Of a stretch of 63,259 bases of DNA, positions 379-488 are shown piece by piece. Position numbers and translations under genes: made by a program. Each line of letters starts with the position of its first letter. The first letter of the stretch is position 1. The notes under the pieces are model-generated. The model was not told where the DNA came from. It searched no databases and was given only the letters and a program-made list of their open reading frames with translations. This DNA comes from a virus (taxonomy: Duplodnaviria; Caudoviricetes). The stretch spans positions 1 to 63,259 of IMG/VR virus record IMGVR_UViG_3300025108_000002; one strand, 5' to 3'.

Positions 379-488
379 GGGCGTGAAATGGTTAGACTAC
401 AAAATAGGTGGGCGAATGCTGTAAAGATACCGCGAGGAGCGGTACCTAAATTGTAGTAACGCAGGTTCGATTCCTGCCACGTCCACTA
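379..488 (+). ncRNA. Mini-tmRNA-like RNA (tRNA-like domain only)
   Basis: Acceptor GGGCGTG/CACGTCC with G3.U70 and discriminator A; stemless D-loop AAATGGTTAGAC; P2-like ACTACAA/TTGTAGT plus TAGGT/ACCTA; T-arm GCAGG-TTCGATT-CCTGC. Confidence 0.8.

Follow-up and report, generated by a model that had tools for sequence, protein, structure and literature searches.

The viral record IMGVR_UViG_3300025108_000002 (Duplodnaviria; Caudoviricetes), analysed over all of its 63,259 bases and referred to here as the window, carries at positions 379–488 of the plus strand a gene for a small RNA that retains only the tRNA-like domain of transfer-messenger RNA (tmRNA), namely the acceptor stem, a stemless D-loop, the T-arm and the base of helix P2. 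The acceptor stem is formed by GGGCGTG (379–385) and CACGTCC, which together with the discriminator A485 occupies 478–485, and within it G381 at position 3 pairs with U482 at position 70 (G3.U70). The 5' strand is followed by the D-loop analogue AAATGGTTAG, GG included (386–395), which aligns to the D-loop positions of the tmRNA model. Helix P2, or H2, pairs 396–402 with 451–457 and encloses an exchangeable module (405–448) consisting of a distal P2 helix (405–409 with 444–448) and a 34-nucleotide interior with two small hairpins (410–443). An AAC linker (458–460) joins P2 to the T-arm (461–477), where GCAGG (461–465) and CCTGC (473–477) flank the loop TTCGATT, and the gene ends in a CTA trailer (486–488) in the place of an encoded CCA. 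The acceptor stem was assigned from RNAfold and from the alignment to RF00023, the tmRNA family of Rfam, the T-arm from that alignment, P2 from RNAfold and covariation, the module from RNAfold and the trailer from the sequence. Apart from the linker, these parts had been listed from the letters alone in a preliminary description of the locus, and rereading the sequence found each of them in its place. The minimum free energy and centroid structures from RNAfold are the same and reproduce the cloverleaf-less shape described, with an energy of −39.6 kcal/mol against a mean of −27.3 for shuffled sequences (z = −3.2; 1 of 200 shuffles equally good).

RF00023 matches both ends of the element with 37.7 bits (E 1.9e-13) in an alignment spanning model positions 1–374, with 304 internal positions replaced by 40 nucleotides; a match of tmRNA models to the 5' and 3' ends only is what had been predicted. 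Two points count against leaning on this match: Rfam at its gathering scores finds nothing in the window, the RF00023 cut-off being 47, and ordinary tRNAs score 24–32 bits on the same ends of the model. Because normal tRNAs reach such scores, the match alone indicates resemblance to the tRNA-like domain of tmRNA and not membership, and it is the family evidence that carries the case. The tRNA model RF00005 gives the element 25.5 bits, below its cut-off of 29, and ARAGORN reports 0 tRNA and 0 tmRNA genes in the window. The element has neither a D-stem nor an anticodon arm with a 7-nucleotide loop, as a canonical tRNA would, and it is not circularly permuted in the manner of RF02544 and RF04321, the gene being in standard order; RF04321 scores 13.7 bits (E 1.9) on the 3' part, among the matches listed.

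The family is large. A pattern for the 3' end found 89 stretches in IMG/VR, and in a scripted search a pairing 5' strand was present for 80 of 82 3'-pattern matches (80 loci plus the window), 77 of the 80 paired matches being 68–146 nucleotides long and three of them long. With a pattern for the 5' end only, 54 stretches were obtained, comprising 47 complete elements and 7 chance matches within genes. A covariance model, R1, built from 15 members and covering the acceptor stem, five P2 pairs and the T-arm, scores 379–488 at 78.7 bits and gave 121 matches across 100 sources. The core family, made up of sequences with one of three core acceptor variants, contains 82 distinct sequences of 68–152 nucleotides (median 94.5), with AAC as the linker in 68 of the 82 and GAC in 4.

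Covariation was computed on 105 distinct rows of a model-fitted alignment; such fitting favours the structure, but the margin is large, with standard pairs in 95.4% of cells compared with 77.2% after shuffling and 39–52% with the partner shifted by one to three columns. Changes on both sides are seen at 16 of the 17 pairs. In the acceptor stem 97.4% of cells are paired and all 7 pairs have changed on both sides, while the T-arm is 100% paired with 4 of its 5 pairs changed in this way. Each of the five modelled P2 pairs has 25–59 doubly changed cells, so that the sequence of P2 varies freely while its pairing stays, and in constrained folds of 68 sequences most have a P2 helix at this site whose sequence is unrelated. 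G3.U70, the other feature picked out beforehand for comparison among homologues, is present in 79 of the 82 core members. It is also found in 45 of 45 sequences anchored at the 5' end, which were selected with no 3' constraint and are close relatives of one another. The discriminator is A in the core class. The exact D-loop string AAATGGTTAG occurs in 30 of the 82 members, the rest having close variants that nearly all keep the GG, and the D-loop analogue is almost as conserved as the T-loop. According to a review (PMC3968760) the hallmarks of the tRNA-like domain of tmRNA are an acceptor stem made from the 5' and 3' ends, G3.U70, A73, a T-arm and a reduced, stemless D-loop; the interaction of the D-loop with the T-loop is required for binding of SmpB, which contacts the elbow, and H2 mimics a long variable arm. 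The element has all of these, the acceptor stem with G3.U70 and A73, the T-arm with the stemless D-loop, and P2 at the position of H2.

No mRNA-like domain (resume codon, tag frame and stop) was found in the element, and pseudoknots PK1–PK4 are lacking, P2 enclosing only 34 nucleotides (410–443) in two simple hairpins. The resume codon, tag frame and pseudoknots are thus all missing from the RNA. A closed frame starting with alanine is missing in 38 of the 82 members, the median length is 1 codon, and no frame is conserved. As a hidden tag the window's own alanine-started frame of 14 codons (ANAVKIPRGAVPKL, then a stop) was rejected, being restricted to near-identical sequences and lying inside helices. 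The 'tag' ERTEVYYIC that ARAGORN proposes in a 186-nucleotide element of locus L250 looks spurious. A separate tag piece elsewhere in the genome was also discarded: the only sequence to match an ALAA-plus-stop pattern has TGG at its end and is internal to a gene, and the whole genome contains no frame ending in ALAA and a stop. Taken with the RF00023 ends, the 82 relatives and the covariation, the absence of a conserved tag frame bears out the preliminary proposal of an intact tRNA-like domain of tmRNA type from which the mRNA-like domain is missing, and that this is a real, conserved and tag-less gene is held with high confidence.

The ACTA tail is present in 79 of the 82 members, although the search pattern that selected most of them included CTA; among the 45 sequences anchored at the 5' end the tails are ACTA (42), ACAA (2) and ACTG (1). 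In bacterial tmRNA genes that lack CCA the 3' end is commonly ACT or ACA, and an encoded CCA is lacking in two of the three Bacteroidota host tmRNA genes examined. The idea of a deliberately 'poisoned' CUA 3' end was dropped, CCA-less tmRNA genes being ordinary, and the CTA tail is read as that of an ordinary CCA-less gene which would rely on the CCA-adding enzyme of the host. Neither an SmpB nor a CCA-adding enzyme encoded by the phage was found in the genome, and host factors would therefore be used.

The distribution of the element follows one lineage of phages. Among the carrier records searched, 45 of 50 encode a large terminase (TerL) 65–87% identical to that of the window, as do all 33 of those at least 90% complete, and for this reason the element is regarded as the mark of a single phage clade and as much older than a recent deletion would be. 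The five carriers without a TerL of the window type include three records with full-length tmRNAs. In the opposite direction, of 35 records picked by terminase similarity only, mostly fragments, 3 have RF00023 ends-only matches (78, 108 and 134 nucleotides), and the terminase-similar records that are at least 90% complete both match R1, one of them weakly. A full tmRNA at this position in close relatives would have pointed to a recent deletion remnant; the relatives hold the same short form, and that explanation was rejected. It is likewise extremely improbable that 379–488 has no function and is what is left, after decay, of a captured tmRNA or tRNA-Ala gene or of an attachment site: fragments of ssrA are known in prophages (PMC9004378) and the RF00023 score is below its cut-off, but the two halves are both there and pair with each other, the frame is kept in 82 distinct sequences whose P2 covaries, and the terminases of the carriers span the range of identities just given.

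Some loci carry longer forms with the same 3'-end motif. Full tmRNAs of this kind are found in L095 (2648–2891, tag ANKNQFALAA) and L096 (4103–4453, tag GTNQLALAA), and L135 (3220–3359) has a 140-nucleotide tag-less form with a canonical GGTTTCGAC...GGAC frame and the same 3' end. The series L095, L096 and L135 looks like reduction, and we favour on this basis descent from tmRNA over descent from tRNA-Ala. A further full tmRNA with this 3'-end motif, in L150 (502–908), has one odd tag of 28 residues. The L095, L096, L150 and L135 records do not show a terminase of the window type, three of the four being fragments. Elements of about 70 nucleotides with the same acceptor stem, G3.U70 and a T-arm are also seen in contigs of Acidobacteriota/Terriglobia metagenome-assembled genomes (L176, L196, L208, L209 and L211). 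They are without a normal D or anticodon arm and end in ACC or ACA, and may be separate tag-less tRNA-like-domain RNAs of bacterial genomes or prophages.

The preliminary description had treated the element as unprecedented, and in this respect it has to be corrected. It had also missed that the P2 interior can be swapped, that there are paralogues without the alanine identity, and that a lack of CCA is usual for tmRNA genes of the CCA-less type. Mycobacteriophage DS6A is listed as having a 'TLD only' (tRNA-like domain only) tmRNA (Hudson, Lau and Williams, PMC4131195), so the tag-less phage tmRNA is already a published kind, and the interest of the present family lies in its size, diversity and modularity. 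The element has what characterises such a phage tmRNA without a coding sequence (CDS): an intact domain, no CDS and an ends-only match to RF00023. DS6A is the only tag-less phage example discussed in the text of PMC11915505 and PMC4131195 drawn on here; the 2025 tmRNA database, based on RefSeq viruses, gives 9 'Standard, no CDS' entries and 79 bacteriophage sequences (PMC11915505). The DS6A element was found again at 28478–28560 of JN698994 (83 nucleotides, RF00023 ends-only, 43.2 bits), where it is unannotated. Both are phage genes with G3.U70, A73, a stemless D-loop, a short P2 hairpin, a T-arm and no tag frame, and in both the ends-only match to RF00023 falls below the cut-off and CTA stands instead of CCA. 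They differ in phage lineage and host phylum, and DS6A is a single sequence compared with 82 distinct sequences here. Unlike in DS6A, the P2 interior is variable and modular in the present family (68–152 nucleotides), some genomes have it in two or three copies, and the gene is part of an array with other structured RNAs. The DS6A form is reported to inhibit E. coli tmRNA (PMC11915505, PMC4131195), and a similar molecule, whether chargeable or not, is described as strongly inhibiting tmRNA, perhaps by titrating SmpB (PMC4131195). The DS6A RNA was, according to these citing papers, tested in E. coli. Our literature search, which covered mainly the main texts of openly accessible journals, turned up no account of this family of flavobacterial phages.

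The tmRNAs of Flavobacteriaceae and other Bacteroidota hosts share with the phage RNA the 7-bp acceptor stem, G3.U70, A73, a stemless D-loop with GG, a GTTCGA T-loop and P2, and in these hosts too CCA is often not encoded. Their genes are 371–394 nucleotides long, score 142–174 bits and have tags and pseudoknots, whereas the phage RNA has 34–50 nucleotides replacing about 300. Organellar tmRNAs without a CDS (jakobid mitochondria, and forms of about 65 bp in Mallomonadaceae plastids) have likewise kept the tRNA-like domain and lost the mRNA-like domain (PMC11915505); they are usually encoded by circularly permuted two-piece genes and have a dedicated SmpB, while the phage gene is in one piece, in standard order and without SmpB. 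With tRNA-Ala the element has in common a 7-bp acceptor stem, G3.U70, A73 and the T-arm, and its acceptor sequence recurs in the tRNA-Ala genes of L203 and L226, but it has no D-stem, no anticodon arm and no 7-nucleotide anticodon loop.

Comparison of P2 interiors with all collected loci by blastn gave 429 hits, both inside and outside tmRNA-like frames, and P2 is accordingly a site where hairpin modules come and go. The window's interior is shared with near-identical mini-tmRNAs of L103, L110 and L118, and through these it was traced by blastn as a free-standing sequence in L117, L143, L257 and L097. Positions 266–287, in the array upstream of the element, are identical to part of the interior of the L134 mini-tmRNA, and the module at about 24–92 resembles by eye the interiors of L165, L261 and L264. 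Such modules may represent cargo, or else selfish palindromic insertions that a neutral site tolerates. The shortest members, of 68–73 nucleotides, hold little more than a P2 hairpin.

Some genomes have more than one such frame. Two or three R1 matches are present in 18 of the 99 sources other than the window, and the extra matches include forms with A1-U72, G3-C70 or a U discriminator as well as minihelices of 43–59 nucleotides with acceptor stem and T-arm and without P2. Two or three frames are seen in L167 (79–161 and 162–260, head to tail), L175 (three matches), L169, L149, L116 and L152, and a second type recurs with A1-U72, a U discriminator and sometimes G3-C70. The window itself has a tRNA-shaped element at about 113–197 of the plus strand (R1 11 bits, for the T-arm only, at 174–188) and a near-minihelix at 60732–60809 (R1 25.8 bits), each with a perfect T-arm and without the alanine identity pair; the 3' end of the latter overlaps the next promoter-like motif. 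Relatives have a canonical tRNA-Met (CAT) gene that begins 0–2 nucleotides after the CTA tail of the mini-tmRNA (L107 348–421, L112 2370–2444, L146 12984–13058 and L088 118–192). Since tRNA-Met genes abut the tails in this way, the mini-tmRNAs are taken to belong to gene clusters of tRNA type, although the window itself has no tRNA gene according to ARAGORN.

The best-supported reading, and the one we put forward, is that the RNA competes with host tmRNA for SmpB. The preliminary description had proposed a decoy for SmpB and EF-Tu or rescue without a tag, and DS6A is the one precedent for such a function. It would be excised from the early plus-strand transcript in the manner of a tRNA, with RNase P acting at the 5' end and RNase Z or exonucleases maturing the 3' end before CCA is added. 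The elbow formed by the D-loop and T-loop, together with P2, would permit binding of host SmpB, and G3.U70 and A73 would permit charging by alanyl-tRNA synthetase (AlaRS). Having no template, the RNA could not direct tagging of proteins; it would thus be a competitor of host tmRNA, for SmpB and perhaps also for AlaRS, EF-Tu and stalled ribosomes, so that tagging and trans-translation would be lowered during infection. Processing, CCA addition, charging, binding of SmpB and the effect on the host are all predicted from sequence features, and since every biochemical step is inferred we regard the chain as a whole as evenly poised between right and wrong.

Several observations weigh against it. 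Three of the 82 core members carry A3-U70, and in diverged second copies the 3:70 pair is G-C, A-U or U-A and the discriminator is U or C; given these members and copies, charging with alanine cannot be required of all. The phage RNA differs from host tmRNA in the acceptor stem, the D-loop (TTAGAC compared with TTTTGAC) and the linker (AAC compared with GGAC), and because of these differences binding of SmpB is not assured. The inhibition by DS6A is taken from two papers, PMC4131195 and PMC11915505, that cite Mao et al. 2009. Lastly, 199 of the 429 blastn hits of P2 interiors lie outside any tmRNA-like frame and 42 of 79 distinct copies with enough flank end at most 20 nucleotides before an ATG open reading frame (ORF; counted if at least 30 amino acids long), and a modular P2 interior and a position before ORFs fit a role in scaffolding or processing equally well.

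Those last points lead to an explanation in which SmpB is irrelevant and the frame is a chassis or processing signal of tRNA type, recognised by RNase P, RNase Z and the CCA-adding enzyme, that would punctuate a polycistronic early transcript, stabilise or release the hairpin module in P2 and leave a short A/U-rich mRNA leader. Interiors swapped among phages and free-standing in the same arrays, including the identity at 266–287, are as it would predict, and it accommodates the short distance to the following ORF, the tRNA-Met genes next to mini-tmRNAs in relatives, and the sources with two or three tRNA-like elements, among them minihelices and paralogues without G3.U70, of which the window has its own at 60732–60809 and 174–188. 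The members of 68–73 nucleotides, however, show the frame alone being maintained. Moreover, a minihelix of acceptor stem and T-arm suffices for processing, yet the core keeps G3.U70, A73 and a stemless D-loop like that of tmRNA, and the frame scores higher on the tmRNA model than on the tRNA model. We consider this explanation unlikely. It is similarly doubtful that the tmRNA-like frame is a chassis with P2 as an insertion platform for interchangeable modules, which sister phages would also have as free-standing stable RNAs in their early arrays, so that the family would amount to a modular system of phage small RNAs and not simply to a sponge for SmpB; in such a system the frame may supply processing by RNase P and RNase Z, stability and perhaps delivery to ribosomes by SmpB and EF-Tu.

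The same conserved G3.U70 and A73, with the intact acceptor stem, T-arm and elbow, would also suit ribosome rescue without a tag, in which the alanylated RNA with host SmpB and EF-Tu would accept the nascent chain and release would follow by another route. Ribosomes would then be freed with no phage proteins marked for proteolysis, as has been proposed for mitochondrial tmRNAs without a CDS, those that co-occur with SmpB being thought to help mitochondria handle incomplete mRNAs (PMC11915505). With no template or stop codon, though, the ribosome would hold peptidyl-RNA with nothing to decode. The similar molecule described in PMC4131195 inhibited tmRNA with or without charging, and paralogues lacking the alanine identity pair exist. 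Such rescue seems distinctly improbable to us.

The early position of the gene and the several differing, decoy-sized tRNA-like RNAs per genome could further be explained if the RNA were a decoy for a host defence protein that reads tmRNA or tRNA-like RNA, such as a system with an SmpB-like OB domain; in Type II and III-A CoCoNuT systems, binding of tmRNA is predicted for domains that resemble SmpB (PMC11090510). The idea depends on the prediction of that one paper, and no such system could be tied to this phage. A role of this sort would be very surprising. Competition for SmpB remains the reading adopted here.

The phage record is complete. The ends of the record are repeated (1–509 is identical to 62751–63259), giving a genome of about 62.7 kb, and the occurrence of the same gene at 63129–63238 of the plus strand was rejected as a true second copy for being part of this terminal repeat of the assembly. 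PHROG profiles identify a large terminase, a portal protein, a primase/helicase, a ribonucleotide reductase and a sigma factor. Compared with other records, the terminase shares 61% identity with that of one uncultured podovirus record and about 44% with those of the Flavobacterium elemo phages; 87 records match it, all below 60% apart from the podovirus record, and phages of Cellulophaga, Tenacibaculum and Maribacter follow. From the hosts of these relatives, the host is probably a member of the Flavobacteriaceae. In the L153 record (G079) the terminase match at 7231–9437 is in pieces, the longest of which contains 3 TGA, 2 TAG and 3 TAA codons; the break may be an intron- or intein-like interruption or a fault of assembly. 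No match to window positions 1–3000 was found by blastn among phage records, and the element alone matched only the T-arms of tRNAs; the record of Flavobacterium phage elemoE has no RF00023 or R1 match. The closest GenBank record, MW202828.1 (L265), has at 532–630 an unannotated R1 match that is only tRNA-like (25.9 bits). The RNA there follows a small ORF annotated as 'A2L zinc ribbon', which mirrors the window, where a small zinc-ribbon-like ORF (about 62533–62721) precedes the RNA array and the element.

The gene lies in an early unit of the plus strand that has repeated promoter-like motifs. Upstream of it, 1–378 of the same strand and unit is an ORF-free array of structured RNAs, and downstream an ORF of 62 amino acids (505–693, plus strand) begins with an ATG 16 nucleotides after the RNA gene. 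There is no intrinsic terminator between the two, the sole terminator-like site (525–540) being inside that ORF, and the ORFs downstream of the mini-tmRNAs differ among phages. A bipartite motif (TTTACAAAC..., then GATAATATAA) recurs ahead of small plus-strand ORFs at 59858–62504 and at 695 of the window, and among relatives it is also seen downstream of 7 of 79 mini-tmRNAs; this is probably the kind of early promoter that the clade uses.

Six RNA runs contain small shares of window positions 1–1500. Four RNA libraries, each from a different study, have contigs on 1–361 and on the promoter-like motif at about 693–731, with a summed word depth of up to 254 (X17); these contigs are 90–99% identical to the window, and hence come partly from relatives, and carry-over of DNA is possible. 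Swaps of modules can be seen in these contigs, with 24–94 skipped in favour of 35 other letters, as well as joints at which the sequence goes back. No contig of the four libraries covers 379–455, a gap that the use of contigs and the filters on the records make uninformative about expression. One X16 contig covers about 456–488 and then continues into a tRNA-like sequence, and for that reason it was assigned to a relative.

Tag-less tmRNAs are rare in curated data, and they are found here across a whole clade of marine phages related to phages of Flavobacteriaceae. As the frame is under clear selection, interference with the ribosome rescue of the host, or borrowing of it, may be a frequent early event in infection. 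Natural variants are also available within the family, with and without G3.U70, with and without P2 and with many interiors, in which the need for each domain could be tested, and the swappable interior suggests that the frame may also carry other phage RNAs.

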